Notes: generated from the sequence alone by a model not told the origin. DNA of 64,000 bases from Lapillicoccus sp. (GCF_046595215.1 NZ_JBKJPP010000126.1:7355-71354), one strand, 5' to 3'; positions 31,394 to 51,800 are shown, counted from the first letter of the stretch. Made by a program: numbers and translations.

Positions 31394-31458
31394 TTGACAG
31401 GGGGGACCCAGCCCAGCACCCTGTTGCACAGGAAGAAGCCCACTGCGCAATGAGCAAC
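31394..31458 (+). promoter_or_regulatory. betB operon promoter with two 17-bp boxes at 19-bp period
   Basis: TTGACA(31394)-N17-CACCCT; boxes GTTGCACAGGAAGAAGC (31423) and ACTGCGCAATGAGCAAC (31442). Confidence 0.7.
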
Positions 31459-31498
31459 AACTGTCATTGCCGCTACCGTTCCTCCGAAGGGTGACGAC

Positions 31499-32968
31499 GT
31501 GGCGGAGCTCTACCTCGACGGCGAGTGGCAGGACCCCGTGGCCGGTGGCCGGCGGGAGATCCGTTGCCCCGCCGACGGCTCACTCGTTGCCACGCTCTCC
31601 GAGGGGACCCGGGCCGACACCGAGCGGGCGATCAGCGCTGCGCGACGTGCCTTCGACAACGGTCCCTGGCCGCGGACGCCCGAACGCGAGCGCGGCGCAC
31701 TGCTGACCCGGGCGGCCGACCTGATGGTCCGGGACACGGCGGAGTACGCCCGGGCGGAGGCGCTCGACACCGGCAAGCGGCTCGTCGAGGCCGAGCTCGA
31801 CATCGACGACGTGGTGCGTTGTCTCCGCCACTACGCCGGGATCGCCGGCACCGACGCCGGACGGGTCATCGACACCGGGGTCGCCGACGCCATCAGCGCG
31901 GTGGTGCACGAGCCGGTCGGGGTCTGCGGCCTCATCACCCCGTGGAACTACCCCCTGTTGCAGGTGTCCTGGAAGGTCGCCCCGGCCCTCGTGGCCGGCA
32001 ACACCTTCATCCTCAAGCCGAGCGAGCTCACCCCGTCGACGGCCGTCCTGCTCATGCGCACGCTCGCGGAGGCGGGGCTCCCCCCGGGGGTCGCCAACCT
32101 CGTGCTCGGCACCGGCGCCGAGGTCGGCGCACCGTTGTCCGAGCACCCGGACGTCGACCTGGTGTCCTTCACCGGCGGCCTCGAGACCGGGCGCCAGATC
32201 ATGGCGAGCGCGGCCCGGACCATCAAGAAGGTCGCCCTCGAGCTGGGGGGCAAGAACCCCAACATCATCTTTGCCGACGCGGACTTCGACGCGGCCGTGG
32301 ACCACGCCCTCACCGCGGTCTTCCTCCACTCCGGCCAGGTCTGCTCGGCCGGGGCCCGGCTGGTCGTCCAGGAGGAGCTGCACGACCGCTTCGTCGACGA
32401 GGTCGTGCGCCGCGCGAAGGGGATCCGGCTCGGTGGCCCCTTCGACGAGCAGGCCGAGACCGGGACGTTGATCTCCCGGGCCCACCTGGACAAGGTCGCG
32501 GCATACGTCGAGGGTGGTCTGGCCGAGGGCGCTGTGCTGCGCTGCGGCGGGACGAGGGACACGGAGGGCGACCTCGCGAAGGGCTTCTTCTACCGACCGA
32601 CCGTGCTCGACGACTGCCTCACGACGATGCGGGTCGTGCAGGAGGAGTCCTTCGGGCCGGTCCTCACGGTCGAGCGCTTCACCGACGAGGCGGACGCGGT
32701 CCGGATCGCCAACGACACCACCTTCGGCCTGGCCGGCGCGGTGTGGACCCAGGACGGCGGCAAGGCCCAGCGGGTGGCCGCGCTGCTGCGCCACGGGACG
32801 ATCTGGATCAACGACTACCACCCCTACGTGCCGCAGGCCGAGTGGGGCGGGTTCAAGCAGTCGGGCGTGGGCCGGGAGCTCGGGCAGGCCGGGCTGCAGG
32901 AGTACCGCGAGACCAAGCACATCTGGCAGAACGTGCGGCCTCGAGCCGAGCACTGGTTCCACGCATGA
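31499..32968 (+). CDS. betB: Betaine aldehyde dehydrogenase (ALDH family)
   Basis: [33 protein letters not shown]; betaine cluster context supports substrate. Confidence 0.82.
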
Positions 32969-34056
32969 GCACCGACACGGGCGTCGCGCCCGCGACCGAA
33001 GGAGATCGGGCCATGGCCGTGCACGCGACACCGGCGGTGGAGCCGGTCATCTCGGTCCGCAACCTCTGGAAGGTCTTCGGCGAGAAGGCGGACGGCGTGC
33101 CCGGGTCGACGGAGCTGTCCTCCCTCTCGCGCAAGGAGCTCAAGGAGGCGACCGGATGCGTCGCCGCGGTGTGCGACCTGAGCTTTGACGTCGCGCCCGG
33201 CGAGGTGTTCGTCGTCATGGGGCTCTCGGGGTCCGGCAAGTCGACGCTGGTCCGTTGTCTCACGCGGCTGATCGAGCCGACCGCGGGGGAGGTCGTCTTC
33301 CAGGGCGAGGACATCCTGAACTGCAACGAGAAGGCCCTGCGCGACCTGCGCCGGCAACGGATCTCGATGGTGTTCCAGCACTTCGGGCTGCTGCCTCACC
33401 GTCGCGTCGTCGACAACGTCGCCTACGGCCTCGAGATCCGCGGCACCGCCAAGGCCGAGCGGCTCAGGCGCGCCGCCGAGGTGATCGACCTCGTCGGGCT
33501 GACGGGATACGAGCACTCCTTCCCCGACCAGCTGTCCGGGGGGATGCAGCAGCGGGTCGGCCTGGCCCGCGCGCTCGCCGGGGACCCGGACGTCCTGCTC
33601 TTCGACGAGCCGTTCTCCGCGCTCGACCCGCTCATCCGGCGCGACATGCAGAACGAGGTCATCCGGCTGCACCACGAGGTCGGCAAGACGATGGTCTTCA
33701 TCACGCACGATCTCTCCGAGGCGCTGAAGCTGGGCGACCGGATCCTCATCATGCGCGACGGCCGCCTGGTCCAGATCGGGACCGGCGCCGAGCTGGTCGG
33801 GGCCCCCGCGGACGACTACGTGCGCGACTTCGTGCGTGAGGTGCCCCGCTCCCACGTCCTGACGCTGCGGTGGATCATGCGTCCGGTCGCCGACGGTGAC
33901 GACCTCGAGGGCCCGGAGTTCGGCCCGGACGTCATCGTGCGTGACGCCGTGCGAGCGGTGCTCGAGGCCGAACGCCCGATCAAGGTGGTCGCGGACGGCC
34001 GCCTGCTGGGCGTCGTCGGCAACGCCGAGATCCTCGCCGTGGTCGCCGGGTCATGA
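32965..34056 (+). CDS. Glycine betaine/choline ABC ATPase (ProV/OpuAA-like)
   Basis: [62 protein letters not shown]. Confidence 0.9.
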
Positions 34057-36038
34057 CCACGGTCACGGCTGTCCGGGCCGGCATCCGGGTGAGCCGGGGT
34101 GTGCTCATCGCGGCGATCCTCGCCGTGTGGGTGGTGGGGTATGCCGTGCTCCGGGGTCGCGACACCCTCGCCCTGGCGACGTCGGACGTCACCGGACTGC
34201 ACACCCGGCTCAACGACCTCAACGACTCCGTGGGCGCCAACCGCAACACCAACCCGCTGTTCCTCTACTTCTTCAACGAGATCCGGCTGGTGATCGACCA
34301 GCTCACGACCTTCATCTCGGGGCTCGTGGCGCAGCCGGCGTTCGGTCGGCCCGTCCCGCTCATCGGGTGGCTCGGCGTGATCGCGCTGCTCGGCTTCGGT
34401 GCCTGGGCCCTGGGCAACCTCAAGGTCGCCGCGCTGACCGTCGCCGGCTTCACCTTCATGGGCCTGCAGGGGCTGTGGCGCGAGAGCATGGACACCTTCT
34501 CGCTCACCCTGGCAGCGGTCCTCGTGGCGCTGCTGCTCGGTCTCCCCATCGGGATCTGGGCCGGGTTGTCCGACCGGGTCAACCGGCTCGTCACCCCCGT
34601 GCTGGACTTCATGCAGACGATGCCGACCTTCGTCTACCTGGCGCCGCTCACCCTCGTCTTCCTGATCGGACCGGCGTCGGCCGTCATCGCGACCCTGATC
34701 TACGCCGCGCCCCCGGTGATCAGGATCACCGCACACGGCATCCGGCAGGTGCCCGGGGAGACCCTCGAGGCCGCGGGCTCCCTCGGCGCCACCCGCCTGC
34801 AGATGCTGCGCAACGTCATGCTGCCGATGGCCAAGCGCACCATCGTCATCGGCATCAACCAGACGATCATGGCGGCCCTGTCGATGGTCACCATCGCCGC
34901 CCTCATCGACGCGCCCGGGCTGGGCCAGGTCGTGCTGCGCTCGCTGCAGTCCCTCGACGTGGGACGCGCGTTCAACGCGGGACTGTCGATCGTCGTCATG
35001 GCCATCGTCTTCGACCGGGTCACCACTGCCGCCAGCGTCAGGGTGGAGACCGCCCGGCGCAGTGGCGGCACGCGCGCGGCCAGGGCGCGACGGATGGGCC
35101 TCATCGCGGGCGGCCTCGTGACGGCCGTCTGCGTCTACCTCGCCTACACCTTTGTCTGGGCGGCGGAGTTCCCGGCGGACGTCAACCTGGGTGCCCCGAT
35201 CGCCCAGCTCGCGACGACGGTGACGAACTGGGTGCAGCTGAACCTGAGCGGGGTCACCAACGGCTTCAAGGACGTCACCACCAACGGGTTGCTCAACCCG
35301 CTGCAGAGCCTGCTGACCGAGTCCCCCTGGTGGCTCGTGAGCGCTGCGCTCATCGCCCTGGCCGCGGTGGCCGGGCGCGCCCGCGCCGCCCTGACGACCG
35401 CGGTGTGCCTGGCCCTGCTCATCGCCACGGGGCTGTGGTCGGACGCCATGGCGACCTTGGCCGCCACGCTGCTCGCGACGGTCCTCGTCATGGCGCTGGG
35501 CCTGGTCGTCGGCGTGTGGATGGGGCGCAGCCCGCGGGTCGACCGGGTGATCCGGCCGGTGCTCGACGCCGCCCAGACGATGCCGTCGTTCGTCTACCTC
35601 GTCCCGTTCGTGGCGCTCTTCGCCGCCAGCCGGTTCACGGGGATCGCGGCCGCGGTGGTCTATGCCTCACCGGTGGCGATCAAGATCATCGCCGACGGGA
35701 TCGCCGCCGTGTCACCGACGACCATCGAGGCCGCCACCGCAGCCGGGTCCACCGCGTGGCAGATCATCACCAAGGTCCAGCTGCCGATGTCCCTGCGGAC
35801 CCTCACGCTGGCCACCAACCAGGGACTCATCTACGTCCTGTCGATGGTCGTGGTCGGCGGGCTCGTCGGAGGGGGGGCGCTCGGCTACGACGTCGTGGCC
35901 GGCTTCCGCCAGAACGCCCTCTTCGGCAAGGGTCTCGCCGCCGGACTGGCGATCGTGCTCCTCGGGATCATGCTCGACCGGGTGACCCAGGCGGTGGCCC
36001 GGCGAGCCGACGCGCGGACCCACCACGGGCGCCTGTGA
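34053..36038 (+). CDS. Betaine ABC permease with two fused ProW-like domains
   Basis: [27 protein letters not shown] and [27 protein letters not shown]. Confidence 0.88.
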
Positions 36039-36098
36039 GCGCTCATCCGCCGCCCTGGCGCAGCCGGCCCCGAGACCCCCCGAACCCACCCCCGTCAT

Positions 36099-36125
36099 CC
36101 GACCGAACCGACCGAACCGACCGAA
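36099..36125 (+). repeat. (CCGACCGAA)x3 just before the SBP ribosome-binding site
   Basis: Seen directly. Confidence 0.8.
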
Positions 36126-36138
36126 AGGGCACCACACC

Positions 36139-37128
36139 ATGAGACTCTCCAGGAACGGCAACAGCTCTCGACCCGTGACCGCACTCGTCGCGGCAGGCGT
36201 GGCCGTTGCGCTGGCCGCCTGCAGCGGTGCCAAGGTGGGCGAGACCGCCGCGGCTCCCGCATCCGGGGGTCCGTCCGGGGCCACCTGCGGCACGTTCAAC
36301 CTGGCGGTCAACGCCTGGGTCGGCTATGAGGCCAACGCGGCCGTGATCGCCTACGTGGCGCAGAACAAGCTGGGCTGCAAGGTCGTCAAGAAGAACCTCG
36401 ACGAGCAGGTGTCGTGGCAGGGCTTCGGCACGGGTGAGGTCGACGCCATCCTCGAGAACTGGGGACACGAGGACCTGGCGAAGAAGTACATCACCGAGCA
36501 GAAGGTGGCCCAGGATGCCGGACCGAGCGGCAACATCGGCGCGATCGGCTGGTACGTCACGCCGTCCCTGGCGGCCCAGTACCCCGACATCACGGACCAC
36601 AACAACCTCAACAAGTACGCGTCGCTCTTCAAGACCTCCGAGTCCGGTGACCAGGGCCAGCTCCTCGACGGTGACCCCGGCTTCGTCACCAACGACGCCG
36701 CCCTGGTGAAGAACCTCAACCTCAACTACAAGGTGGTCTACTCCGGTTCGGAGGCGGCGCTGATCACCAGCTTCCGCCAGGCCGAGCAGACCAAGAAGCC
36801 GATGATCGGCTACTTCTACTCGCCGCAGTGGTTCCTCTCCGAGGTGCCGCTGGTCAAGGTCAAGCTCCCGGCCTACACCGCGGGGTGCGACGCGGACGCG
36901 GCCAAGGTGGCCTGCGACTACCCGGACTACACCCTCAACAAGGTCGTCTCGACGAAGTTCGCGACGTCCGGCAGCCCGGCATACGCGCTGGTCAAGAAGT
37001 TCACCTGGACCAACGAGGACCAGAACCTCGTCGCGAAGTACATCGCCCAGGACAAGATGTCCGACGAGGACGCTGCCAAGAAGTGGGTGGAGGCCAACCC
37101 TGCCAAGGTCGCGGCCTGGTTGTCCTGA
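36139..37128 (+). CDS. Betaine ABC binding lipoprotein (ProX/OpuAC-like)
   Basis: Lipobox LAAC; AWVGYEA, DAILENWG, IGWYV, GYFYSPQW aromatic-cage residues. Confidence 0.88.
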   Translation: MRLSRNGNSSRPVTALVAAGVAVALAACSGAKVGETAAAPASGGPSGATCGTFNLAVNAWVGYEANAAVIAYVAQNKLGCKVVKKNLDEQVSWQGFGTGEVDAILENWGHEDLAKKYITEQKVAQDAGPSGNIGAIGWYVTPSLAAQYPDITDHNNLNKYASLFKTSESGDQGQLLDGDPGFVTNDAALVKNLNLNYKVVYSGSEAALITSFRQAEQTKKPMIGYFYSPQWFLSEVPLVKVKLPAYTAGCDADAAKVACDYPDYTLNKVVSTKFATSGSPAYALVKKFTWTNEDQNLVAKYIAQDKMSDEDAAKKWVEANPAKVAAWLS

Positions 37129-37157
37129 CCCGTGCGTGGCAGACGGTCCGGCAGGCC

Positions 37158-37223
37158 TTGACAGGGGCGGGGCGATCCTCCACGATCGTTGCGTAGAACG
37201 CATGATGTTGCGCCAGATGAGAC
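37158..37223 (+). promoter_or_regulatory. dmg-sox operon promoter with two boxes at 19-bp period
   Basis: TTGACA(37158)-N17-CACGAT; GTTGCGTAGAACGCATG (37188) and GTTGCGCCAGATGAGAC (37207). Confidence 0.7.
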
Positions 37224-37236
37224 GTTGGAGGTTGGT

Positions 37237-39675
37237 ATGCCGGGTCCGCGCGTGGTCATCATCGGTGCCGGCGTGGTGGGTGCGGCGCTCGTCGACGAGC
37301 TGACCCTTCGCGGGTGGGACGACGTGACCATCCTCGAGCAGGGCGAGCTGCCCGCGCCCGGAGGCTCGACCAGCCACGCCCCGGGCCTCGTCTTCCAGGC
37401 CAGCGCGTCCAAGACGATGACCGAGCTGGCGCGCTACACCGTCGAGAAGCTCTGCAGCCTCGAGGTCGACGGGCAGCCGTGCTTCCTGCAGGTCGGTGGG
37501 CTCGAGGTCGCGACCACCCCCGAGCGGGTCGCGGAGCTGCACCGCAGGGCCGGCTGGCTGAGCGCGTGGGGCGTCGAGTCCCAGCTGCTCGACGCCGCCG
37601 AGACCGCCGCGAAGTACCCGCTGCTCGATCCCGCGGTCGTTCTCGGCGGGCTGTTCACCCCGACCGACGGCATCGCCAAGGCCGTCCGCGCCGTGGACGC
37701 GCAGACGCGGCGCGCGGCCGAGCGGGGCGCGACGGTCCTGGACCGGCACGAGGTCCTCGACATCACCGTCGTCGACGGCGCCGTTATCGGCGTCGTCACC
37801 GACCACGGCGACTTCCCCGCTGACGTCGTCGTCTGCTGCGCCGGCATCTGGGGCCCCGTCATTGCCGCCAAGGTGGGGATGACGCTGCCCCTCACCCCGC
37901 TCGGGCACCAGCTCGCCTGGACCTCGGCCGTGCCCGCGCTCGCCGGCCGCGACCGGGAGGCGGTCCTGCCGATCCTGCGCCACCAGGACCAGGACCTGTA
38001 CTACCGCGAGCGGTTCGACGCCCTCGGCGTCGGCTACTACGGCCACCGTCCGATGCCGATCCGGGCGCAGGACATCGCCCGCACGAACGAGTGCGCGGGC
38101 ATGCCCTCGGTGATGGAGTTCACCGAGGAGGACTTCGAGCAGGCCTGGGCCCAGACCCAGGTCCTGCTCCCCTCGACCCGCGACGCCAAGGTGGAGGAGG
38201 GCATCAACGGCCTCTTCTCCTTCACGACCGACAACATGCCGCTCATCGGGCAGTCGCCGCAGGTCTCGGGATTCTGGGTCGCCGAGGCCGTGTGGGTCAC
38301 CCACTCGGCCGGGGTCGGCCGGGCGGTCGCCGAGCTGCTGGTGGACGGGCACTGCTCGAGCTTCGACCTGCACGAGTGCGACGTGAACCGGTTCGAGGCC
38401 CACCAGCTCTCACCCGACTACGTCCTCACCCGGGACTGCCAGAACTTCGTCGAGGTCTACGACATCCTCCACCCGCTGGAGCCGGCCGAGAGCCTGCGGC
38501 CGCTGCGCACCAGCCCGTTCCACCACCGCCAGCAGGAGCTCGGGGCCGTCTTCCTCGAGGCGTCCGGATGGGAGCGACCCCAGTGGTACGAGGCAAATGC
38601 GGGGCTCGTCGAAGGTCGCGACATCGCCACGCCGGACGGCTGGGCGGCGCAGCACTGGTCGCCGATCGTCGCCGCCGAGGCCCAGGTCACCCGCGAGGCG
38701 GTCGCCCTCTACGACATGACCGCCCTGAAGCGGATCGAGGTCACCGGACGCCACGCCGCGGCATACCTCAACTCGCTCGTCACCGGCAACGTCGACACGT
38801 CGGTCGGGTCCGTGACCTACTGCCTCCTGCTCGACGTCGACGGCGGGATCCGCAGTGACGTCACCGTCGCCCGTCTCGCGGCGGACCGCTTCCAGGTCGG
38901 CGCGAACGGCAACCTCGATCTCGACTGGTTCACCCGCCACCTTCCCGAGGCCGGCACCGTCCAGGTCCGCGACGCCACCCCGGGCACCTGCTGCATCGGC
39001 CTGTGGGGCCCTCGCGCCCGGGACGTCATCGCGCCCCTCACCGGGACCGACTTCAGCCACGAGGCGCTGAAGTACTTCCGCTCGACACCGGCCTTCATCG
39101 GCACCGTGCCCGTGACGGCGATGCGCCTGTCCTACGTCGGTGAGCTCGGTTGGGAGCTCTACACCAGCGCTGACCAGGGCGAGCGGCTGTGGGACCTGAT
39201 CTGGGAGGCGGGGCAGCAGCATGGGGTCATCGCCGCCGGCCGCGGAGCCTTCTCGAGCCTGCGGCTGGAGAAGGGCTACCGCTCCTTCGGCGCCGACATG
39301 ACCTTCGAGCACGAGCCCTACCAGGCCGGGCTCGGCTTCGCCGTGAAGCTCGACAAGGGCGACTTCATCGGGCGGGAGGCGCTGCTCGCCCGCAGGGACG
39401 CGAGCACGTCCGTGCTGACGTGCCTGACCCTCCCGGAGCCCGGCTCCCTCGTCATGGGCAAGGAGCCGGTCTACGCCGGCGACGCCTGCGTCGGCTACGT
39501 CACGAGCGCGGGCTACGGGTACACCATCGGCACGGGCATCGCGTATGCGTGGCTGCCGAGCGCGCTGTCCACGGCGGGCACCCATGTGCAGATCGGATAC
39601 TTCGACCAGCGGATCGACGCCGTCGTCACGGCTGAGCCCCTGTTCGACCCCGGCATGACCAGGCTGCGCAGCTGA
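37237..39675 (+). CDS. Dimethylglycine oxidase/dehydrogenase (FAD domain + GcvT folate domain)
   Basis: [16 protein letters not shown] flavinylation motif, [33 protein letters not shown]; ATG 37237 after GGAGG. Confidence 0.85.
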
Positions 39676-40940: not shown

Positions 40941-40999
40941 TCACCAGGCACAGACCAGACCAAACCACAGACCGCAGAGCGCAGACCTGGAGTGAGTCG

Positions 41000-41278
41000 A
41001 TGCAGCTGATCCCGTGCCCCTGGTGTGGGCCCCGCGACGAGGTGGAGTACCACTACGGAGGCCAGGCCCACGTGCCCTATCCCGAGGACCCGCAGGCCCT
41101 GGACGACGAGGAGTGGGCTCGCTACGTCTTCTTCCGCGACAACCCCAAGGGCGCCTTCGCCGAACGCTGGTGCCACTCGGCCGGGTGCCGTCGCTGGTTC
41201 AACGCGGTGCGGGACACCTCGACCCACCAGCTGCTGGCGATCTATCGCGTCGGCGACCCGAAGCCGGTCATCACGTGA
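41000..41278 (+). CDS. soxD: Sarcosine oxidase delta subunit
   Basis: MQLIPCPWCGPRDEVEYHYGG, ERWCHSAGCRRWFNAVRDT. Confidence 0.93.
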   Translation: MQLIPCPWCGPRDEVEYHYGGQAHVPYPEDPQALDDEEWARYVFFRDNPKGAFAERWCHSAGCRRWFNAVRDTSTHQLLAIYRVGDPKPVIT

Positions 41279-44136
41279 GCACCCCGATGCGCACGGCTGC
41301 AGGGGGCCGGGTCGAGCGTGACGTCGAGCTGTCCTTCACCTTCGACGGGGTGACCCACACCGGGCACCAGGGGGACACGCTGGCCTCGGCCCTGCTCGCC
41401 AACGGGGTGCACGAGGTGTCGAGCAGCATCCGTCACGGTCGCCCGCGCGGGATCATGGCGGCCGGCGCCGAGGACCCCAATGCGTTGGTGCAGATGGAGG
41501 TTCCCTTCCCGGAGCCAATGCTCACGGCCACGACCATCGAGCTCTTCGACGGCCTCGTCGCCCGCGGTCTCCCCGGCAGGGGCCGGCTGGCCACCGAGCC
41601 GGACCCGGCCCGCTACGACGCGATGCACGCGCACTGCGACGTCCTCGTGGTCGGTGCCGGACCGGCCGGGCTGGCGGCTGCCCTCGTCGCCGCCCGCTCC
41701 GGCTCCCGAGTGGTGCTGCTGGACGACCAGCCCGAAGCGGGCGGCTCCCTCCTCGGCAGCGTCGACCTCATCGACGGACGTCCCGCGCTGGAGTGGGTCG
41801 CGCTGGCGCTGGCGGAGCTGGCCAGCCTCCCCGAGGTCCGCGTCCTGAGGCGGACCACCGCGTTCGGCTTCTATGACGACGGCTTCGTCCTGGCGATCGA
41901 GCGACGCACCGACCACCTGGGCCTCAGGGCCCCGGACCACGTTTCACGCCAACGGATCTGGCGGCTGCGTGCCCGCGAGGTCGTGCTGGCCACCGGGGCC
42001 CACGAGCGTCCGGTCGTGTTCACGGACAACGACCGCCCCGGCATCATGCTCGCCGGCAGCGCCCGCACCTACCTGCACCGCTTCGGCGTCCTCGTCGGAG
42101 AGCGCGCCGTGGTCTTCACCACCAACGACAGCGCCTACGGCGCCGCCGTGGAGCTGTCCGACGCGGGTGTGGAGGTGGCGGCCGTCGTCGACGCCCGACC
42201 CGTCGCGCCCACCCACTGGGTCCAGCAGTGCGAGCGGCGTGGCATCGAGGTGCGCGAGGGGCACGTGGTCACCGGCACGAGCGGCAACAGACGGGTCAGC
42301 CGGGCCCATGTCGCGCGCATGGTCGACGGCGCCCTCGGACCACGGACGGGGCTCGGCTGTGACGTGCTGCTCGTCTCCGGCGGGTGGAACCCGGCGGTCC
42401 ACCTCTACAGCCAGGCCCGGGGACGACTGACCTACGATGACGCCATCGGCGCGTTCCTGCCCGGAGCGCAGGTCAGGGGAGTCGGTGTCGCGGGCGCCGC
42501 AGCAGGGCGGTTCAGCCTGGGGGAGTGCCTGGCCGACGGCGCCGACGCGGGCTCGCGGGCCCTGGCGGCCCTGGGGCTCGACACGCCGCAGTCGGGCACC
42601 GTCCACGAGACCGAGTCGGTCCCGCTCGAGGCGTCGCTGACCCTGTGGTCCGTGCCGGACCCGTCCGAGGTCGACCGGGGGGCGCGGCAGTTCGTCGACC
42701 TGCAGCGCGACGCCACGGTGGCCGACATCCTGCGCGCCACCAGCGCCGGGCTGCGCTCGGTGGAGCACGTGAAGCGCTACACCACCATCGGCACCGCCCA
42801 CGACCAGGGCAAGACCTCGGGGATCATCACGTCCGGGATCGTCGCGGACCGCCTCGGGGTCGAGATCGGCGACCTGGGCACGACGACGTTCCGTCCGCCC
42901 TACACGCCGGTCTCGTTCGTGGCGCTCGCCGGCCGTGACCGGGGGCACCTGCACGACCCGGAGCGGGTCACCCCCCTGCACCGCTCGCACGAGGACGCGG
43001 GGGCCCTGTTCGAGGACGTCGGGCAGTGGAAGCGGCCGTGGTTCTTCCCGCTGACCGGAGAGGACCAAGAGACGGCCGTGCTGCGCGAGTGCGCAGCCGC
43101 CCGGCAGGGGGTGGCGATGATGGATGCCTCGACGCTGGGCAAGATCGAGGCGTCCGGCTCCGGTGCCGCAGAGTTCCTCGACCTCGTCTACACCAACCTC
43201 ATGAGCAGCCTCAAGGTGGGCTCGGTGCGCTACGGCGTGATGTGTGGGGTGGACGGGATGGCCATCGACGACGGCACCGTCATGCGTCTCTCCGCGGACC
43301 GGTTCGTGCTCACGACGACGACCGGCAACGCGGCCACCGTCCTCGACTGGATGGAGGAGTGGCTGCAGACCGAGTGGCCCCACCTCGCCGTCCGGCTCAC
43401 CAGCGTCACCGAGCAGTGGGCCACCGTGGCCCTCGTCGGGCCCCGGTCACGCGAGGTCCTGTCCCGGGTGGCGCCCGACCTGGCCGTCGAGAACGACGCG
43501 TTCCCGTTCATGACCTGGCGCGACGCGGTGGTGGCCGGGCTGGCGGCCCGCGTCTGCCGGATCAGCTTCTCGGGCGAGCTCGCCTTCGAGATCAACGTCA
43601 GCGGCTGGGACGCCGTGAGTCTCTGGGAGGCCCTGCACGTGGCGGGGTCGGACTTCGGCATCACCCCGTATGGCACGCAGGCCATGCACGTGCTGCGAGC
43701 GGAGAAGGGCTACCCGATCATCGGGCAGGACACCGACGGCACGGTGACCCCCCACGATCTCGGCATGGCATGGGTCGTCTCGAAGAAGAAGGCCGACTTC
43801 ATCGGCAAGCGCTCCTTCGCCCGCGCCGACAACAACCGGCCCGACCGCAAGCACCTCGTCGGCCTGCTGCCCGTCCAGCGGGACGTGCTGCTGCCCGAGG
43901 GGTCGCAGCTGATCCAGACCGCCGAGCTGCCGGAGCCCCCCGTCCCGATGCTCGGCCACGTGACCTCCAGCTATCGCAGCGTTGCCCTCGAGGGGACCTT
44001 CGCGCTGGCCCTGGTCAAGGGGGGACGCGACCGGATCGGTGACACCCTCTACGTGCCGATGGGCGAGCAGGTGGTGGCCGTGACGGTCGCCGAACCCGTG
44101 CTCTACGACCCCGAGGGGACCCGCCGTGACGGCTGA
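41275..44136 (+). CDS. soxA: Sarcosine oxidase alpha subunit
   Basis: GDTLASALLANG, VGAGPAGLAAA, KRYTTIGTAHDQGK, ISFSGELAFE, LRAEKGY. Confidence 0.95.
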   Translation: MSTPMRTAAGGRVERDVELSFTFDGVTHTGHQGDTLASALLANGVHEVSSSIRHGRPRGIMAAGAEDPNALVQMEVPFPEPMLTATTIELFDGLVARGLPGRGRLATEPDPARYDAMHAHCDVLVVGAGPAGLAAALVAARSGSRVVLLDDQPEAGGSLLGSVDLIDGRPALEWVALALAELASLPEVRVLRRTTAFGFYDDGFVLAIERRTDHLGLRAPDHVSRQRIWRLRAREVVLATGAHERPVVFTDNDRPGIMLAGSARTYLHRFGVLVGERAVVFTTNDSAYGAAVELSDAGVEVAAVVDARPVAPTHWVQQCERRGIEVREGHVVTGTSGNRRVSRAHVARMVDGALGPRTGLGCDVLLVSGGWNPAVHLYSQARGRLTYDDAIGAFLPGAQVRGVGVAGAAAGRFSLGECLADGADAGSRALAALGLDTPQSGTVHETESVPLEASLTLWSVPDPSEVDRGARQFVDLQRDATVADILRATSAGLRSVEHVKRYTTIGTAHDQGKTSGIITSGIVADRLGVEIGDLGTTTFRPPYTPVSFVALAGRDRGHLHDPERVTPLHRSHEDAGALFEDVGQWKRPWFFPLTGEDQETAVLRECAAARQGVAMMDASTLGKIEASGSGAAEFLDLVYTNLMSSLKVGSVRYGVMCGVDGMAIDDGTVMRLSADRFVLTTTTGNAATVLDWMEEWLQTEWPHLAVRLTSVTEQWATVALVGPRSREVLSRVAPDLAVENDAFPFMTWRDAVVAGLAARVCRISFSGELAFEINVSGWDAVSLWEALHVAGSDFGITPYGTQAMHVLRAEKGYPIIGQDTDGTVTPHDLGMAWVVSKKKADFIGKRSFARADNNRPDRKHLVGLLPVQRDVLLPEGSQLIQTAELPEPPVPMLGHVTSSYRSVALEGTFALALVKGGRDRIGDTLYVPMGEQVVAVTVAEPVLYDPEGTRRDG

Positions 44137-44743
44137 CACGAGGCGGCGGAGCCCGCTCGGGCACCGGGCCGCCGAGCTGGCCGCGAACCCGACCGGCGTG
44201 GGACTGCGTGAGGTGCCGTTCCTCACCCAGCTCGACCTGCGCGTTGACCCGGTCGGGCCCGCCGCCGGCGCCGTGGCGCAGCTCCTCGGGGCTCCCCTCC
44301 CGACGGAGCCGAACACCGCCGTCCGCTCGGGCGAGCTGACGACGATGTGGCTGGGACCGGACGAGTTCCTCGTGGTCGCCCCCGCCGATCCCACGGATGT
44401 GCGCGCCACGGGCTTCGCGACAGCTCTCGGGACCGACCTGCTCCACGCGGTCGAGGGCGAGAACGGCGCCGTCGTGGACGTCTCGGCGCACCGGACCACC
44501 ATCGAGCTGTCCGGGGACCGGGTCCTCGACGTCCTCGCCAAGGGCTGCTCGCTGGACCTGCACCCGAGCGTCTTCACCGTCGGTCGGTGCGAGCAGGTCC
44601 TCCTGGGCCTGGCCCCGGTGCTGCTGCTCGCCCGCGGTGGCGAGCGCCCGGCATACCTCCTGCTCGTGCGGTCCTCGTTCGCGACCTACGTCGCCGACTG
44701 GCTGCTCGACGCGAGCCTGGAGTATGCCGGGAGCGACGACTGA
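44126..44743 (+). CDS. soxG: Sarcosine oxidase gamma subunit
   Basis: LREVPFLTQLDLR, WLGPDEFLV, LAKGCSLDLHP, VRSSFATYVADWL. Confidence 0.92.
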   Translation: MTADTRRRSPLGHRAAELAANPTGVGLREVPFLTQLDLRVDPVGPAAGAVAQLLGAPLPTEPNTAVRSGELTTMWLGPDEFLVVAPADPTDVRATGFATALGTDLLHAVEGENGAVVDVSAHRTTIELSGDRVLDVLAKGCSLDLHPSVFTVGRCEQVLLGLAPVLLLARGGERPAYLLLVRSSFATYVADWLLDASLEYAGSDD

Positions 44744-44756
44744 GCGACGCCGCCCC

Positions 44757-46463
44757 TCAGGTGGTGCTCGGGGCCTGCCGCTGGTGGCGGTAGAACTCGA
44801 CCTCGGCCGGGGGCAGCGGGGTCCTGCCGAGGATGAGGTCGGCGGCCTTCTCGGCCACCATCATCACGGGGGCGTAGATGTTGCCGTTCGTGACGTAGGG
44901 CATCACCGAGGCGTCGACGACCTTGAGGTTCTCCAGCCCGTGCACGCCCATCGTCAGTGGGTCGACGACGGACATCTCGTCGAGCCCCATCTTGAGGGTG
45001 CACGAGGGGTGCAGCGCGGTCTCGCCGTCCTTGCGCACCCAGTCCAGGATCTGCTCGTCGGTCTCGACCTCGGGACCGGGGGAGACCTCGCCGGCGTTGA
45101 ACGGCTCGAAGGCCGGCTGGTTGAGGATGTGCCTGGCCACCCGCACCGACTCGACCCACTCCCGGCGGTCCTGGTCGGTGGAGAGGTAGTTGAAGCGCAG
45201 GAACGGGTGCTCCAGCGGGTCGTTGCTGCGGATCTTCACCGAGCCGATGGCGTCGGAGTACATCGGCCCGACGTGCACCTGATATCCCTCGCCGCCCTCG
45301 GGAGCGGACCCGTCGTAACGCACGGCGATCGGGAGGAAGTGGAACATGAGGTTGGGGTAGGTGACGTCCTCGTTGGAGCGCACGAACGCCCCACCCTCGA
45401 AGTGGTTCGTCGCGCCGGGACCGCGGCGCAGGAAGAGCCAGTTGGCCCCGATCCACGGCTTGTAGACGTGCTTGAGGTACTTCTGCATCGTCACCTTCTG
45501 CCTGCAGGCGTACTGGATGTAGACCTCGAGGTGGTCCTGCAGGTTCTCCCCGACACCGGGTAGGTCGTGCACCACGTCGATCCCGAGCGCCGTCAGCTCG
45601 CCCGCGTTGCCCACGCCCGACAGCTGGAGCAGCTGGGGGGAGTTGATCGCGCCGCCGCACAGCACCACGGTCCCGGCGCGGACCTGCTGGGTCGTGCCCC
45701 GGCGGCCGAGACCGCCGCGGCGGCTGCGGCGGTACTCCACGCCCACGGCGGCCTTACCCTCGAAGAGGATCTTCGTCGCCATGGCCCCGGTGAGCACGGT
45801 GAGGTTGGGACGGCCCATCACCGGGTGGAGATAGGCCCGGGCGGCCGAGAGCCGGCGGCCGCGTCGGATGTTGCGGTCGAAGGCGGCAAAGCCCTCCTGC
45901 CGGTAGCCGTTGACGTCGTCGGTGCGGGCATAGCCGGCCTGCTCCCCGGCCCGGAAGAACGCCCGGAACAACGGGTTCGTCGCGGGACCGCGCTCAAGTG
46001 CCAACGGGCCGTCGTGCCCGCGGAAGACGTCGTCCGCGTCGGAGGCGAGGCAGCTCTCCATCCGGTTGAAGTAGGGCAGGCAGTGGGCGTAGTCCCACGT
46101 CTGCATCCCCGGGTCGGCGGCCCAGCGCTCGTAGTCGAGCGGGTTGCCGCGCTGGAAGATCATCCCGTTGATGCTGCTCGACCCGCCCAGGACCTTGCCG
46201 CGGGCGTGATAGATCCGCCGGCCGTTCAGGTGGGGCTCGGGCTCGGAGCGGTACCTCCAGTCGTAGAACCGGCTGCCGATGGGGAAGGGCAGCGCCGCCG
46301 GCATGTGGATGAACACGTCCCAGAGGGAGTCGTTGCGGCCGGCTTCGAGGACGAGCACCGAGTGGGCCGGGTCCGCGGACAGCCGGTTCGCGAGGGCGCA
46401 CCCGGCCGAGCCGCCGCCGACGATGACGAAGTCGTATGCCGTGGCCATCGGGGGCGAGGTCAT
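44757..46463 (-). CDS. betA: Choline dehydrogenase (GMC oxidoreductase)
   Basis: [56 protein letters not shown]. Confidence 0.92.
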
Positions 46464-46530
46464 GGGCTTCCTCCACACAGTCGGGCGCCGGGTGCGGGGC
46501 AGCACCCCCGGGGCACCAGTCTAGGGCGTC

Positions 46531-46602
46531 GTCCCAGATTGCGCACCAGGTCGCACGATCCGCAACAGAGCTCCGGATTGCTACAGTTGCGTCATGAGCA
46601 AC
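46531..46602. promoter_or_regulatory. betA/iclR divergent region with operator boxes
   Basis: Near-perfect dyad GTTGCGTCATGAGCAAC (46586-46602) covers the iclR ATG; minus-strand pair GTTGCGGATCGTGCGAC (46566 down) and GGTGCGCAATCTGGGAC (46547 down), 19 bp apart. Confidence 0.7.
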
Positions 46603-47400
46603 AACCCGCCGAAGGCGCCGAGATCCGCAAAGACCGCGGACTCCGGCGGGGGCGTCCAGTCGGTCGACCGGGCCGTGAGCGTCCTGGAGATCCTGGCCCG
46701 GCGCGGCGGCGCCGGCGTCAGTGAGGTGGCGGCGGACATCGGTGTGCACAAGTCGACCGCCTTCCGCCTCCTGGGAGCCCTCGAGGCGCGTGGGCTGGTC
46801 GAGCAGAACCAGGAACGCGGCAAGTACCACCTGGGGTTCGGCATCCTGCGGCTGGCCAGCGCCATCCCGGGCCGCCTCGACCTCGTCCGGCAGGCCCGAC
46901 CCGTCCTCGACGAGCTGGCGGCCGACTTCGACGAGACCGTCAACCTCGCGGTCATCCGCTCGCACTACGTCGTGAACGTCGACCAGGCCCAGGGTTTCGC
47001 GGCCGTGGCGGCCCAGAACTGGCTGGGCCAGCTGACGCCGCTGCACGCCACCTCGAGCGGGAAGGTGCTGCTGGCCCACCTCGAACGCCACGAGCGGGAC
47101 GCCCTGCTGGACGCGGCCGGCACCGAGCGCTTCACCGAGCACACCATCACCGACCGCACCGAGCTCGCGTCCGCGCTGGACCGCGCGCTCACCGACGGCC
47201 TCGCCACGACGGTCGAGGAGTACGAGGCGGGGCTGAACGCCATGGCGGTGCCGGTCTGCGACCACACGGGCACGGTGGTGGGAGCGATCAGCGTGTCCGG
47301 TCCGGCCTACCGTCTCGACGAGGCCCGGATGAAGGACCTCGCGCAGCGGCTCATCGACGGCGGTCGGCAGATCAGCGACCGGATGGGCCACCTCACCTGA
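46594..47400 (+). CDS. IclR-family transcriptional regulator
   Basis: VQSVDRAVSVLEIL, GVHKSTAFRLL, PLHATSSGKVLLA, AISVSGPAYRL. Confidence 0.93.
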   Translation: MSNNPPKAPRSAKTADSGGGVQSVDRAVSVLEILARRGGAGVSEVAADIGVHKSTAFRLLGALEARGLVEQNQERGKYHLGFGILRLASAIPGRLDLVRQARPVLDELAADFDETVNLAVIRSHYVVNVDQAQGFAAVAAQNWLGQLTPLHATSSGKVLLAHLERHERDALLDAAGTERFTEHTITDRTELASALDRALTDGLATTVEEYEAGLNAMAVPVCDHTGTVVGAISVSGPAYRLDEARMKDLAQRLIDGGRQISDRMGHLT

Positions 47401-47570: not shown

Positions 47571-48719
47571 TCAGGGGCGTGGCGTCGAGCGGACGGCGTC
47601 CCCACCGACCTGCTGGTGCACCCAGTCGTGGAACTTGGCGATGTGGTGCTCACTCGGCACGAGCACGCCGCCGTCGCGGTAGAGGCGCGAACTCATCGAC
47701 GGCTGGCACCGCTCGCAGGCGTCGAAGTCCTGCTGGTTGACCCGGTCGAAGAGCTGGACCGATGCCGTGAGGTCGACGCCGCTCTCGACGACCCCGGGCA
47801 GGAAGAGCCAGTCGCACTCGACGACGGTGCGGTCCGGCGCCAGGGGATACATGCGGTGGAAGATGACGTGGTCAGGGACGAGGTTGATGAAGACCTGCGG
47901 CTTGACCGTGACCGCGAAGTAGCGTCGGTCCTGCCCGTCATCGACCGTCGGGATCGCCTCGACGCCGGGGGAGCCGTCGATGGTGAAGCCCTGGATGTCC
48001 TCACCGAACTGCGCCCCGTGACCCACGAAGTACTGCGCCGCGTAGCCGTCCGCGAACTCGGGCAGGACCTCGGTCAGCTCGGGGTGGATGGTGGCGCAGT
48101 GGTAGCACTCCATGAAGTTCTCGACGATGAGCTTCCAGTTCGCCCCGACGTCGTAGCTGATCCGGCGGCCGACCCGCAGGTCCTCGACGCCGTAGCGCTC
48201 GAGGGCGCCGAGGTCGCCGAGCCGCTCGACGACCTCCTGCAGGACGGTCGACTCGAACGACGGCGGGTCGCTGGCCAGGCACACCCACACGTAGCCGAGC
48301 CACTCCCGCACGGCGATCGGCGCCAGGCCGTACTGGACCCGGTCGATGTCGGGCATCTTGGTGAGGTTCGGGGCGGCGATGAGCTTGCCGTCGAAGTCGT
48401 AGGTCCACGCGTGGTACGGGCACTGGAACGAGCGCTGGGCCTGCCCCGACTCCTCCGTGCACAGCCGGGCGCCCCGGTGCCGACAGACGTTGAAGTAGGC
48501 CCTCGGCTCGCCTCCGCGGTTGCGCGTCAGCAGCACGCTCTCGCGCCCGACGGTCACCGTCCTGAAGGACCCGGGGCCGGTCAGCTCGCTGGCACGGGCC
48601 GCACAGAACCACATCTTCTCGAAGATGTGCTCCTGCTCGGCCGCGAAGAACCCCGCGTCGGTGTAGTCCCTGCCGGGCAGGGTGGGGATGAGGCTCGCGG
48701 GCGTTTCGATGAGGGTCAC
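47571..48719 (-). CDS. Rieske non-haem iron oxygenase alpha subunit, glycine betaine demethylase (GbcA/BmoA)-like
   Basis: NVCRHRG..CPYHAW Rieske motif, NWKLIVENFMECYHCATIHPEL, QQDFDACE; substrate inferred from context. Confidence 0.8.
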   Translation of the reverse strand: MTLIETPASLIPTLPGRDYTDAGFFAAEQEHIFEKMWFCAARASELTGPGSFRTVTVGRESVLLTRNRGGEPRAYFNVCRHRGARLCTEESGQAQRSFQCPYHAWTYDFDGKLIAAPNLTKMPDIDRVQYGLAPIAVREWLGYVWVCLASDPPSFESTVLQEVVERLGDLGALERYGVEDLRVGRRISYDVGANWKLIVENFMECYHCATIHPELTEVLPEFADGYAAQYFVGHGAQFGEDIQGFTIDGSPGVEAIPTVDDGQDRRYFAVTVKPQVFINLVPDHVIFHRMYPLAPDRTVVECDWLFLPGVVESGVDLTASVQLFDRVNQQDFDACERCQPSMSSRLYRDGGVLVPSEHHIAKFHDWVHQQVGGDAVRSTPRP

Positions 48720-49951
48720 GGACGCTCCTGGGAGGGGGACGACAGCTGCGGGTGGGTGACGACGGGACGCTGCAGAGCAGGTATGCCGGGCAGCTGGCGC
48801 CGCCACCGGCTGAACTGGCGCACCTGGTTCACGCCGAGGACGGCGACGAGCTCGCCCTCGGTGCGGTAGGTCGCGAGGAAGCTGCGCTCGGCGGGGTCGC
48901 CGATCTCGATCGTGACCGCCTCGGAGCCTTGAGCCGACCCGGCGAACTGGATGCAGGCGTCGTACTGGTCGGACCAGAAGTAGGGCGGGCGGGTGCTGGC
49001 GCCCGTGCTGCTTCCGGAGAGCAGGCTTGCCACCGCGACCTTGGGTCGCTCCAGCGCCTCGGTCCAGTGCTCCACGCGACGGCGGCGGCCCGATGCGCCC
49101 TCGAGCCACGCCGCGCAGTCGCCGACCGCGACGATGCCGGGCCGGTTGGTCAGGCCGCCGGCGTCGCAGAGGATGCCGTCGCCGAGCTCGAGGCCGGAGC
49201 CCTCGAGCCACTCGATGTTGGGCACTGCGCCGATCCCGATGAGGACGACGTCGGCAGGCAGCAGCCGACCGTCGGCGAGCTCCACGCCGTCGACCCGGCC
49301 GGTGCCAGTGAGCCGGCGCACCCCGGCCCCGCAGACCAGGGTGACGCCGTGGTCGGTGTGCAGCTGCGCGACCACCGACCCCATCTCGACGCCGAGGGGG
49401 CCGGAGAGCGGGGTGGGCATGGCCTCGACGACGGTGACCTCGAGGCCGAGTGACCGCGCGGTGGACGCCGTCTCGGCCCCGATGAACCCGGCGCCGACGA
49501 CGACCAGTCGCCGTCCGGGGAGCAGCTCCTGTCGCAGGGCGAGGGCGTCGTCGAGGCTGCGGAGGGTGTGCACGCCGGCCAGGCCGGTCGCGTCGGCCAC
49601 GCCGGCCGCGTCGGGGAGGGTCCTCGCACGGGCACCAGTCGCGACGACGATGCCGTCCGCTGTGAGCTCGGACCCGTCGGAGAGGGTCAGCGTGCGGGTG
49701 CCCGCGTCGAGGCTGGTGGCCCGCAGCCCGAGCAGCCACCGCGCGTCGAGGTCGTCGTCCTCGTCCTCGAGCGCCAGGTCGGCGACGTCCACACGGCCGG
49801 CGAGGAAGGCCTTGGACAACGGTGGCCGGTCATAGGGGCGGTGGGGCTCGTCACCGACGAGGACCAGCTCACCGGCGAACCCCTGGGCGCGCAGGGCGCG
49901 CGCCGCCGAGAGGCCGGCCAAGGAGGCGCCGACGACGACGACGCGCTGCAT
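48716..49951 (-). CDS. Ferredoxin-NAD(P)+ reductase (FAD-dependent)
   Basis: VVGASLAG, YDRPPLSK, VGAGFIGAE, AVGDCA, PYFWSDQY. Confidence 0.9.
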   Translation of the reverse strand: MQRVVVVGASLAGLSAARALRAQGFAGELVLVGDEPHRPYDRPPLSKAFLAGRVDVADLALEDEDDDLDARWLLGLRATSLDAGTRTLTLSDGSELTADGIVVATGARARTLPDAAGVADATGLAGVHTLRSLDDALALRQELLPGRRLVVVGAGFIGAETASTARSLGLEVTVVEAMPTPLSGPLGVEMGSVVAQLHTDHGVTLVCGAGVRRLTGTGRVDGVELADGRLLPADVVLIGIGAVPNIEWLEGSGLELGDGILCDAGGLTNRPGIVAVGDCAAWLEGASGRRRRVEHWTEALERPKVAVASLLSGSSTGASTRPPYFWSDQYDACIQFAGSAQGSEAVTIEIGDPAERSFLATYRTEGELVAVLGVNQVRQFSRWRRQLPGIPALQRPVVTHPQLSSPSQERP

Positions 49952-50334
49952 CAGCGGGGGCCTGCGCCGCGGGGGACGATCGCCTGGGCCCGACCCGTCG
50001 CCGCCAGGCCCGGCGGCAGGTTGGGCTCCTCGGTGGACAGCTCGACATAGATCTGGTCGCCGTCGACGACGACCCGGTGAGTGCGCACCGCACGCTTGGC
50101 TGGAGGGGCGTCCACCCGCCCGGTGCGCAGGTCGAACCTCGACGCGTGCAGGGGGCACTCGACCGCGCACCCCTCGAGCCAGCCGTCGGCCAGCGATGCG
50201 TCCTGGTGGGTGCAGGTGTCGTCGATGGCGAACAGCTCGCCCTCCTCGGTGTGGAACACGGCGATGGGAGGCGTGATGACGACCCGGAGCGCAGCACCGG
50301 GCAACAGTGCCGCAAGGGGGCAGACCAACAACAT
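49951..50334 (-). CDS. Rieske-type [2Fe-2S] ferredoxin
   Basis: DTCTHQDASLADG, VECPLHASRFDLRTG; ATG 50334 after GAGGTG. Confidence 0.9.
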   Translation of the reverse strand: MLLVCPLAALLPGAALRVVITPPIAVFHTEEGELFAIDDTCTHQDASLADGWLEGCAVECPLHASRFDLRTGRVDAPPAKRAVRTHRVVVDGDQIYVELSTEEPNLPPGLAATGRAQAIVPRGAGPR

Positions 50335-50349
50335 CTCAGGGATCACCTC

Positions 50350-50415
50350 GGTGCATATGACACAACTAGGAGCGCACTACGCAACAGGATCGGCCATGGC
50401 GGAGGGAGGTGTCAA
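50350..50415 (-). promoter_or_regulatory. Rieske operon promoter with two boxes at 19-bp period
   Basis: Minus strand: TTGACA (50415-50410), GTTGCGTAGTGCGCTCC (from 50385), GTTGTGTCATATGCACC (from 50366). Confidence 0.7.
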
Positions 50416-50492
50416 GCGGACGCGTCACCCGTCTCGCGCTCGCGGCGGTGTCGGTGGCGGCCGGTGTCGGTCCCCGGTGCCACGGTGGGCCC

Positions 50493-51686
50493 ATGGACCT
50501 CCTCATCGGGCTCGGCGGACTGGCTCTCGGCGTCATGCTGGCCACGCTCATCCTGCACTCGCGGTATGCCGTGCCGCTCGCCACCGCGACGGCGGAGCGC
50601 GACTTCCTGCGCGAGCGCGTCGTCGACCTCGAGGCCACGGTGAGTGCCGACTCGGAGACGGCCCAGATGATCGCGCCGCTGCGCTCGAGCCTCGAGCGGG
50701 TCGAGAGGCAGGTCCACGACCTCGAGCGGGAGCGGGTGGCCCAGTTCTCGACGGTGGCCGCCGAGCTGACCCGGGTGCGGTCCTCGACTGCCGAGCTGCG
50801 CTCCCAGACCGCGTCCCTGGTGGGGTCGCTCAACGCGTCCACGGTGCGGGGATCATGGGGTGAGGTGCAGCTGAGCCGGGTGCTCGAGCACTCGGGGATG
50901 CTCTCGCGGTGCGACTTTGACGAGCAGGTGAGCGCGACGACCGCCGACGGGGGCACCGTGCGGCCCGACGTCGTGGTCCACCTCCCCGGTGGCAAGGACC
51001 TCGTCATCGACGCCAAGGTCCCGATGACCGCCTTCCTCCGCGCGCAGGCGGACGGGCTGACCACCCAGGAGCGCGGCGACCAGCTGGTGGCCCATGCCAA
51101 AGCCCTGCGGTCGCACGTCGACGCCCTGGCGGCCAAGGCCTACTGGAGCGCGCTGCCGCTGACCCCCGAGATGGTGGTCTGCTTCGTTCCGGGCGACGCG
51201 ATCCTCACCGCGGCCCTGGCCCACGACCCAGACCTGCACGAGCACGCGATGCGCCGGCGCGTCGTCCTCGCCTCGCCGGCCACGCTCCTGGCGCTGCTCC
51301 GCACGGTCGCGTTCACCTGGCAGCAGGAGGCGCTCGCGAGCAACGCCCGCGAGCTGCTCGAGGTGGGCCGCGAGCTCTACGAACGCCTCAGCGGGCTCGG
51401 GCAGCATGCCAGCCGGATGGGGTCAGCGCTGCAGCGCTCGGTCGAGGCCTACAATGGCTTCATCGGCTCCCTCGAAGCCCGGGTGCTGGTCACCGCCCGC
51501 CGGATGCACGAGCTCGGGGTCGTCGAGCGCCCGCTCGAGCCGCTCCACCCCGTGACGACGCCCAGCAGGCCCCTGACCGCGGTGGAGCTGCTCGAGGCCC
51601 TGGAGCCCGAGGTGGCGCGCCCTGAGCTCGATCTGGAGTCAACAGCCGACGAGCCGGCCACCCTGCGAGCCGAGCGTCAGGCCTGA
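50493..51686 (+). CDS. rmuC: DNA recombination protein RmuC
   Basis: N-terminal TM, coiled coil, RGSWGEVQL, RPDVVVHLP, IDAKVP, FVPGDA, SPATLLALLR. Confidence 0.9.
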   Translation: MDLLIGLGGLALGVMLATLILHSRYAVPLATATAERDFLRERVVDLEATVSADSETAQMIAPLRSSLERVERQVHDLERERVAQFSTVAAELTRVRSSTAELRSQTASLVGSLNASTVRGSWGEVQLSRVLEHSGMLSRCDFDEQVSATTADGGTVRPDVVVHLPGGKDLVIDAKVPMTAFLRAQADGLTTQERGDQLVAHAKALRSHVDALAAKAYWSALPLTPEMVVCFVPGDAILTAALAHDPDLHEHAMRRRVVLASPATLLALLRTVAFTWQQEALASNARELLEVGRELYERLSGLGQHASRMGSALQRSVEAYNGFIGSLEARVLVTARRMHELGVVERPLEPLHPVTTPSRPLTAVELLEALEPEVARPELDLESTADEPATLRAERQA

Positions 51687-51716
51687 ACGAGCGCTGCTTC
51701 GGACAGTCGAGCCCTC

Positions 51717-51800
51717 TTGACCCGCCCCAGCCACTCCGCCACTCTGGTGCACACCACCCACTGTGTTGTGTCATACGCACCGTGTTGTGTCATACGCACC
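51717..51800 (+). promoter_or_regulatory. purU promoter with three boxes at 19-bp period, two forming a perfect tandem duplication
   Basis: TTGACC(51717)-N17-CACTCT; boxes at 51746, 51765, 51784; GTGTTGTGTCATACGCACC x2 (51763-51800). Confidence 0.75.

Follow-up and report, generated by a model that had tools for sequence, protein, structure and literature searches.

A 17-bp palindrome phased at 19 bp marks the promoters of an actinobacterial choline-to-glycine island and is the probable operator of its IclR-family regulator

The stretch of DNA analysed here, 64 kb of Lapillicoccus sp. (GCF_046595215.1 NZ_JBKJPP010000126.1:7355-71354, hereafter the window), belongs to an actinobacterial genome of 70% G+C and carries, over about 20 kb, a complete catabolic island leading from choline to glycine. 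Within this island we identified 11 boxes, copies of the imperfect 17-bp palindrome GTTGCG-N5-CGCAAC, at six promoters, namely those of betB-opuA, dmgdh-soxBDAG, betA, iclR, the Rieske operon and purU. Comparison of sequences makes it very probable that these boxes are the operators of the IclR-family protein encoded by iclR, the sole regulator gene of the island (hereafter the cluster IclR), and that they define a local regulon of six promoters under its repression.

All box scores reported here come from a symmetric weight matrix trained on 39 sites, none of them from the window genome (consensus GTTGCGTAATACGCAAC, 17.5 bits); the cross-genome consensus of the 17-bp operator is GTTGCGTAnTACGCAAC. 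The sites found at the six promoters are the following:

31423-31439, plus strand: betB box 1, GTTGCACAGGAAGAAGC, 9.0 bits; good left half-site, degenerate right half; the layout is also present in a genome of the same genus (G005)
31442-31458, plus strand: betB box 2, ACTGCGCAATGAGCAAC, 14.1 bits
37188-37204, plus strand: dmgdh box 1, GTTGCGTAGAACGCATG, 15.0 bits; the orthologous site in G005 is GTTGCGTACAACGCATG
37207-37223, plus strand: dmgdh box 2, GTTGCGCCAGATGAGAC, 13.5 bits
46531-46547, minus strand: betA box 2, GGTGCGCAATCTGGGAC, 8.8 bits
46550-46566, minus strand: betA box 1, GTTGCGGATCGTGCGAC, 13.0 bits
46586-46602, no strand assigned: iclR box, GTTGCGTCATGAGCAAC, centred on the start codon, 23.0 bits, the top match of the genome
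50350-50366, minus strand: Rieske box 2, GTTGTGTCATATGCACC, 18.9 bits
50369-50385, minus strand: Rieske box 1, GTTGCGTAGTGCGCTCC, 16.1 bits
51746-51762, plus strand: weak purU box at the canonical place after the -10, GGTGCACACCACCCACT, 2.4 bits, left half-site only
51765-51781 and 51784-51800, plus strand: two identical purU boxes, GTTGTGTCATACGCACC, 19.5 bits each

Elsewhere in the window no match of at least 8 bits was found, except for an overlapping alternative register at 31435 (9.9 bits). A first-pass annotation, made from the sequence alone, had proposed a five-promoter regulon with boxes mostly at a 19-bp period, and direct reading found all of these boxes where it had placed them, with the best dyad over the iclR start codon; the five catabolic promoters stand, and iclR adds a sixth promoter of its own. 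Its description of the boxes as GTTG(C/T)-initiated has to be amended, since they are imperfect palindromes without a specific direction and the one at 31442 begins with ACTGC. Among the three boxes it had placed before purU, those at 51765 and 51784 are strong and that at 51746 is marginal. Position 37226, considered as a third box, is not a box and was discarded at -39 bits. Ahead of the betB -35 hexamer, at 31363, there is a box-like sequence with the right half only, TTCACAATGTGAGCAAC (0.8 bits).

The two strong purU boxes arose by exact tandem duplication of a 19-bp unit, GTGTTGTGTCATACGCACC, present in two copies within 51759-51800 (Tandem Repeats Finder: period 19, 2.2 copies). The duplicated unit is one operator period, so that slippage can alter the number of boxes without loss of phase. 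A generic repeat finder run on the five promoter regions did not pick up the boxes, because they are too degenerate for seed extension.

Both the motif and its spacing are specific to the island. When the whole 3.94-Mb genome was scanned, the top four matches were the iclR box, the two purU boxes and a Rieske box, all in the cluster, and 10 of the 24 top matches fell inside the 20-kb span, against 0.12 expected (P = 2.5e-17). Pairs of boxes of at least 4 bits each were then counted genome-wide at fixed spacings: exactly five pairs are 19 bp apart, and these are the five catabolic promoters, while spacings of 15-18 and 20-25 bp gave 0-6 pairs each in the genome and none within the cluster. The top matches outside the cluster (C42:19208, C172:4764, C127:2091, C89:18424, C187:23598, C131:18365, C37:9233 and C21:5023) include none with a partner at 19 bp, and they sit in or beside long open frames or near transposase-like genes. 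The regulon appears confined to the cluster in this genome. Two of the outside matches, GGTGCGCAAGATGAAAC at C127:2091-2107, within an open reading frame (ORF), and GTTTCATCAGACGCACC at C187:23598-23614, where no convincing gene was called, are related palindromes of 16-17 bits that are probably due to chance or are sites of another regulator.

The boxes occupy a constant place with respect to the promoter elements, as the first-pass annotation had noted for four of the five catabolic promoters. At betB, dmgdh, Rieske and purU, TTGAC(A/C) precedes box 1 by 23-24 nt, an arrangement that would arise by chance at four of five promoters with a probability of about 1e-13. The -35 is followed, after a spacer of 17-18 nt, by -10 hexamers of the form NANNNT (CACCCT, CACGAT, GATCCT and CACTCT) that end 0-1 nt before box 1. 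The elements are:

31394-31399, plus strand: betB -35 TTGACA, read directly, 23 nt ahead of box 1
31417-31422, plus strand: betB -10-like CACCCT, ending at box 1
37158-37163, plus strand: dmgdh-sox -35 TTGACA, read directly; 17-nt spacer to CACGAT at 37181-37186, with the box starting at 37188
46582-46587, plus strand: iclR -10 TACAGT, whose final GT is box positions 1-2, 6 nt ahead of the A of the ATG
50410-50415, minus strand: Rieske -35 TTGACA, read directly, starting at 50415 and 24 nt ahead of box 1; the -10 is GATCCT
51717-51722, plus strand: purU -35 TTGACC, read directly; the -10 CACTCT is at 51740-51745

At betA the -35-like hexamer is ATGACG, and it is overlapped by the box on the iclR start codon (46586-46602). 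We infer a start of transcription 6-8 nt past the -10. Box 1 would then span about -6 to +11 and box 2 would span about +14 to +30, the layout expected of a repressor.

The top-scoring box is centred on the iclR ATG (46594-46596). A box likewise centred on the ATG or GTG start of iclR was found in 20 of 29 orthologous loci, preceded by TAnnGT in nearly all of those 20. Given this conserved -10 six nt before the ATG, the iclR mRNA is probably leaderless and subject to autorepression. Codons 2-3 of iclR, which specify Ser-Asn, coincide with the right operator arm, AGC AAC.

The same motif was recovered from other genomes with no prior model. We enumerated all 5-nt inverted repeats with spacers of 0-13 across 295 kb of sequence, made up of 18 orthologous loci of other genomes, normalising the counts by arm frequency, as raw counts were dominated by codon-periodic GC-rich arms. 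Out of 3540 arm/spacer combinations GTTGC-N7-GCAAC ranked first, with 12 occurrences in 11 loci against 0.35 expected (P = 5e-15). The box was then sought at a threshold of at least 11 bits in an independent set of 28 loci taken from an even sample of the class, none of which had contributed to the matrix. It was present in 24 of them, at a density of 0.58 per kb compared with 0.013 per kb in the window genome outside the cluster (46 times background), and 23 of the 26 box pairs lying within 60 bp of each other were spaced by exactly 19 bp.

Boxes and regulator are inherited together. Of 401 genomes sampled across the class, 59 (in 29 of 175 genera) have an IclR orthologue; the orthologues, at 44-74% identity, repeatedly adjoin betA, Rieske genes, dmgdh, soxB/soxG, purU, betB or an ATP-binding cassette (ABC) transporter, in gene orders that vary widely, the commonest neighbours being dmgdh, purU and the Rieske genes. 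Across 61 relatives, the orthologue occurs in 10 of the 11 genomes with a dimethylglycine (DMG) dehydrogenase and in none of the 50 without it (Fisher P = 1.2e-10), and paralogous DMG-dehydrogenase-like genes remote from an IclR carry no boxes. Gene order differs in G005, of the same genus, where the cluster reads purU<>betB-opuA-dmgdh and iclR<>betA-Rieske; the betB, dmgdh and Rieske promoters nevertheless keep the arrangement TTGACA-N23/24-box-N2-box, and the regions upstream of purU and betA keep the 19-bp pair. The right arms are degenerate in genome G045. Second, paralogous IclR genes (33-36% identity) found beside the orthologues carry a different box, GTTCCAT-N3-ATGGAAC (L003:3530, L004:4288-4304, L103:14904-14920), which suggests that the same islands hold two IclR regulators with separate operators.

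Some local features of these loci can be recorded here. In G005 (L094, ~12980-13830) an extra minus-strand gene, absent from the window, lies between dmgdh and soxB, and soxB has its own TTGACC promoter followed by ACTGGTATACTAATAGT. Upstream of the iclR orthologue of L002 (~3540-3700), about five copies of GGCGGCGGGTGGTCTGAACGGAT form a short direct-repeat array, and in L097 (~9440-9600) units of CCCCGCTGATTGAGC are repeated downstream of the Rieske oxygenase, beside the iclR orthologue.

From these data we propose that one IclR dimer binds each 17-bp palindrome, and that at the five catabolic promoters two dimers, probably as a tetramer, would bind cooperatively to the 19-bp tandems. As the pair extends from 0-1 nt after the -10 to about +30, the bound protein would cover the transcription start and the early transcribed region, a placement from which it should repress, by blocking either open-complex formation or promoter escape. 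The single strong box on the iclR ATG, which also overlaps the weak -35 of the divergent betA, would give autorepression. A pathway metabolite would bind the C-terminal domain of IclR and release the protein from DNA, turning on together choline oxidation, betaine uptake, the demethylation of betaine, DMG and sarcosine, and purU. Judging by the genes most often found next to the orthologues (dmgdh, purU and the Rieske genes), we would guess, with low confidence, that the inducer is glycine betaine or DMG.

Several observations weigh against repression by the cluster IclR from these sites. The right half is degenerate in several boxes (31423, 46531 and 51746), the 19-bp distance between centres corresponds to about 1.8 helical turns and not exactly two, genome G049 has a shifted half-site, GTTCCG, albeit still in the 19-bp phase, and the orthologues of G045, of the Streptomyces locus L001 and of L123-125 have no box on their own start. 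In addition, the -10 hexamers are weak, for which reason a consensus promoter scan over 31000-38000, comprising the betB and dmgdh promoters, called no promoter. Such promoters could need help, and some members of the IclR family are activators (PMC8222616, Table 1), so that the cluster IclR might bind the boxes and yet act as an activator or dual regulator at some promoters, like PobR and PcaU. We consider this unlikely, since the boxes of the four promoters that have a good TTGACA -35 follow the -10 and reach to about +30, a location from which no route of activation is known, and since the box on the iclR start fits autorepression.

It is less likely still that another factor, either an IclR paralogue or an unrelated helix-turn-helix (HTH) protein encoded elsewhere, reads the boxes, the cluster IclR being a bystander or controlling only itself. 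The extra gene before soxB in G005, putatively GntR-like, could be cited in its favour. However, the motif accompanies the IclR orthologue in at least 29 genera and through rearrangements, 20 of 29 loci have a box on the start codon of the regulator itself, the motif belongs to the IclR-family type, and neighbouring paralogous IclR genes carry another box. The same co-travel with orthologues, start-codon position, co-occurrence and motif type argue strongly, as comparative evidence, for the single regulon read by the cluster IclR that the first-pass annotation had put forward.

That the palindromes function as RNA, in the form of hairpins or attenuators of the 5' untranslated region (UTR), is very improbable: they do lie within predicted 5' UTRs, each could fold, and one terminator-like hairpin was scored (31438-31455, minus strand), but conservation across unrelated promoters and genomes concerns the sequence of the GTTGC/GCAAC arms and not compensatory pairing, and the same box also occurs on the iclR start, which is probably leaderless and would have no UTR. 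An Rfam scan of 29-54 kb with permissive filters matched no family, so that the idea of a riboswitch or leader RNA was discarded.

The cluster IclR has the two domains of the IclR family, an N-terminal winged HTH (PF09339, residues 23-72, 59.0 bits for a cut-off of 22) and a C-terminal effector-binding domain (PF01614, residues 94-261, 148.3 bits for a cut-off of 24). In a search of the whole genome at E <= 1e-40 it matched nothing but itself, and its sequence relatives in the PDB include KdgR, TM-IclR, AllR and TtgV. The top NCBIfam match, aligned over the full length, is BhcR (NF045644), which regulates the beta-hydroxyaspartate cycle and is of the IclR type; an equivalog assignment to BhcR was rejected, the score of 202 bits being below the cut-off of 350 and the gene context being different.

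A comparative study of the family (Suvorova and Gelfand 2021, PMC8222616) describes a group-1 motif of 17 bp, GKTYCRYW3-4RYGRAMC, with a GTT-11-AAC subtype. For 94 orthologous groups it reports tandem sites whose centres are 18-22 nt apart and reads them as tetramer binding, with the dimers on one DNA face; site centres peak between -3 and +1 with respect to the start of the gene. The window motif is of the group-1 GTT-11-AAC type, its consensus GTTGCGTAATACGCAAC deviating from the published one only at positions 4 and 14 (G/C for Y/R), and the spacing of 19 nt at its five tandem promoters falls within the range of the family. Supplementary Table 1 of that study lists the orthologous group ROP_14880, with members including SCAB_6901, SAV_6954, Sros_3853, Gobs_2890/2912, Arth_3712, RHA1_ro01811/01814 and MMAR_4423. 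As in the window, the predicted sites listed there fit TGTTGCGCA-T-TGCGCAACA, they form 19-bp tandems, and on the regulator gene itself they stand at -8 to -10, over the start codon (SCAB_6901 at -10, aGTTGCaCtaTGaGCAACt). Compared by eye, the HTH of SCAB_6901 (VQSVDRAVSVLEILAAGVSEVAAEIDVHKSTAFRLLGALEARGLVEQTGKYRLGF) is almost identical to that of the window protein (VQSVDRAVSVLEILA..GVSEVAADIGVHKSTAFRLLGALEARGLVEQ..GKYHLGF), from which it differs at about 3 of some 53 alignable positions. The published entry is a supplementary list of sites, with no effector, promoter geometry or experiment given. Betaine, sarcosine, choline and purU go unmentioned in the main text; the COG table has rows for PurU, SoxD, SoxG, GcvT, GlyA and FolD, which may belong to ROP_14880. 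The window genome is not among the site-table entries examined. On sequence grounds, motif and geometry are already catalogued in silico under ROP_14880, where the function is unnamed, and the window is a clean new instance of that regulog. The statement of the first-pass annotation that an IclR regulon with this tandem geometry could not be cited as characterised has to be qualified, since 18-22-bp tandems are published and this group is listed (PMC8222616). It holds for the pathway: a full-text literature search found no paper tying an IclR to the regulation of betaine, choline, DMG, sarcosine or purU, the query pairing with purU being swamped by the ICLR conference acronym.

Among characterised proteins, BlcR (AttJ) of Agrobacterium tumefaciens (PMC6402643) resembles the system predicted for the window in being an IclR-fold repressor that acts as a tetramer on an extended operator and is released by its ligand. 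TtgV of Pseudomonas putida is likewise an IclR-family repressor that binds DNA as a tetramer and is released by small ligands. Both differ from the window system in their effectors (gamma-hydroxybutyrate or succinic semialdehyde for BlcR, aromatic solvents for TtgV) and in controlling a single local operon instead of six promoters. The BlcR operator reportedly consists of two inverted repeats with a 3-nt spacer, a description attributed to Pan et al. in 2011. Choline, betaine and sarcosine genes are regulated by BetI (TetR family), GbdR and SouR (AraC family, both activators) and GbsR (MarR-like). In Bacillus thuringiensis, SoxR is a sigma-54 activator of sarcosine genes (PMC4941409). These five proteins share with the window the pathway genes (betA/betB, betaine demethylase, and dimethylglycine and sarcosine oxidation), but they belong to unrelated families and have other operators and mostly other logic, whereas in the window a single IclR-type repressor appears to span the route from choline to glycine plus purU.

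In soil and water, choline, glycine betaine and the products of their demethylation serve as major sources of carbon, nitrogen and one-carbon units, and how their use is regulated is known mainly from Proteobacteria (BetI, GbdR, SouR) and Bacillus (GbsR). In many actinomycetes the entire route appears to be governed by another family of regulators, in a regulon that links purU, and with it the disposal of C1 units, to the demethylases. We lean slightly towards a broader reading, in which this IclR group would be the main switch for the catabolism of choline, glycine betaine, DMG and sarcosine in about one in seven of the class genomes sampled, apparently including Streptomyces-sized ones. The protein would sense betaine or DMG directly, would bind as a tetramer to 19-bp-phased operators just past the -10, and would repress itself through a leaderless start at which the right operator arm doubles as the conserved Ser-Asn codons 2-3. 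The regulon predicted here would supply both function and name for a group of regulators that has so far existed only as rows of a supplementary table, and it illustrates how an operator can be embedded in a putative leaderless start codon. If the broader reading is true, the group would include the first IclR-type sensor of betaine or DMG, usable as a biosensor. How IclR proteins work is understood as before, and the finding will hardly surprise specialists of bacterial regulons.

The genes of the island and their assignments are as follows:

31499-37128, plus strand: betB (betaine-aldehyde dehydrogenase), followed by a transporter of the ProV/ProW type that comprises a ProV-like ABC ATPase, a fused choline/betaine ABC permease and a substrate-binding protein (NCBIfam and Pfam)
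37237-44743, plus strand: dmgdh, dimethylglycine dehydrogenase/oxidase with DAO and GcvT domains, and the heterotetrameric sarcosine oxidase genes soxB, soxD, soxA and soxG (NCBIfam and Pfam)
41000-41278, plus strand: soxD
41287-44136, plus strand: soxA
44757-46505, minus strand: betA, choline dehydrogenase (TIGR01810, 813 bits, exceeding the cut-off)
46594-47400, plus strand: iclR, IclR-family regulator of 268 amino acids with HTH_IclR and IclR_C domains (Pfam, 59 and 148 bits)
47571-50346, minus strand: three-component Rieske system (Pfam), comprising the ferredoxin (49951-50346), a flavin adenine dinucleotide (FAD) reductase (48716-49954) and a GbcA/Stc2/CntA-like oxygenase (47571-48722)
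50409-51686, plus strand: rmuC
51812-52678, plus strand: purU, formyltetrahydrofolate deformylase (TIGR00655, 344 bits, exceeding the cut-off)

The Rieske oxygenase scored 213.9 bits against the NCBIfam model of GbcA (NF058607), short of the cut-off of 670, with the match confined to the N-terminal part. Its partners are a Rieske ferredoxin and an FAD reductase, not a GbcB-type reductase, and there is no beta subunit. The closest solved structures by sequence are the oxygenase chains of 3vca and 4qup (the latter deposited as monooxygenase/demethylase) and of the carnitine monooxygenase 6y8j. The system resembles quaternary-amine demethylases without being a GbcA equivalog, and it is a probable glycine betaine demethylase.

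At the left end of the island, the gap of about 750 bp between ispH and betB (30750-31498) holds no gene of coding-like G+C content at third codon positions; a 138-amino-acid ORF at 30972-31388 has no Pfam match. Towards the right end, rmuC lies between purU and the remaining genes of the regulon, and its longest frame opens at the GTG at 50409, abutting the Rieske -35 hexamer (50410-50415).

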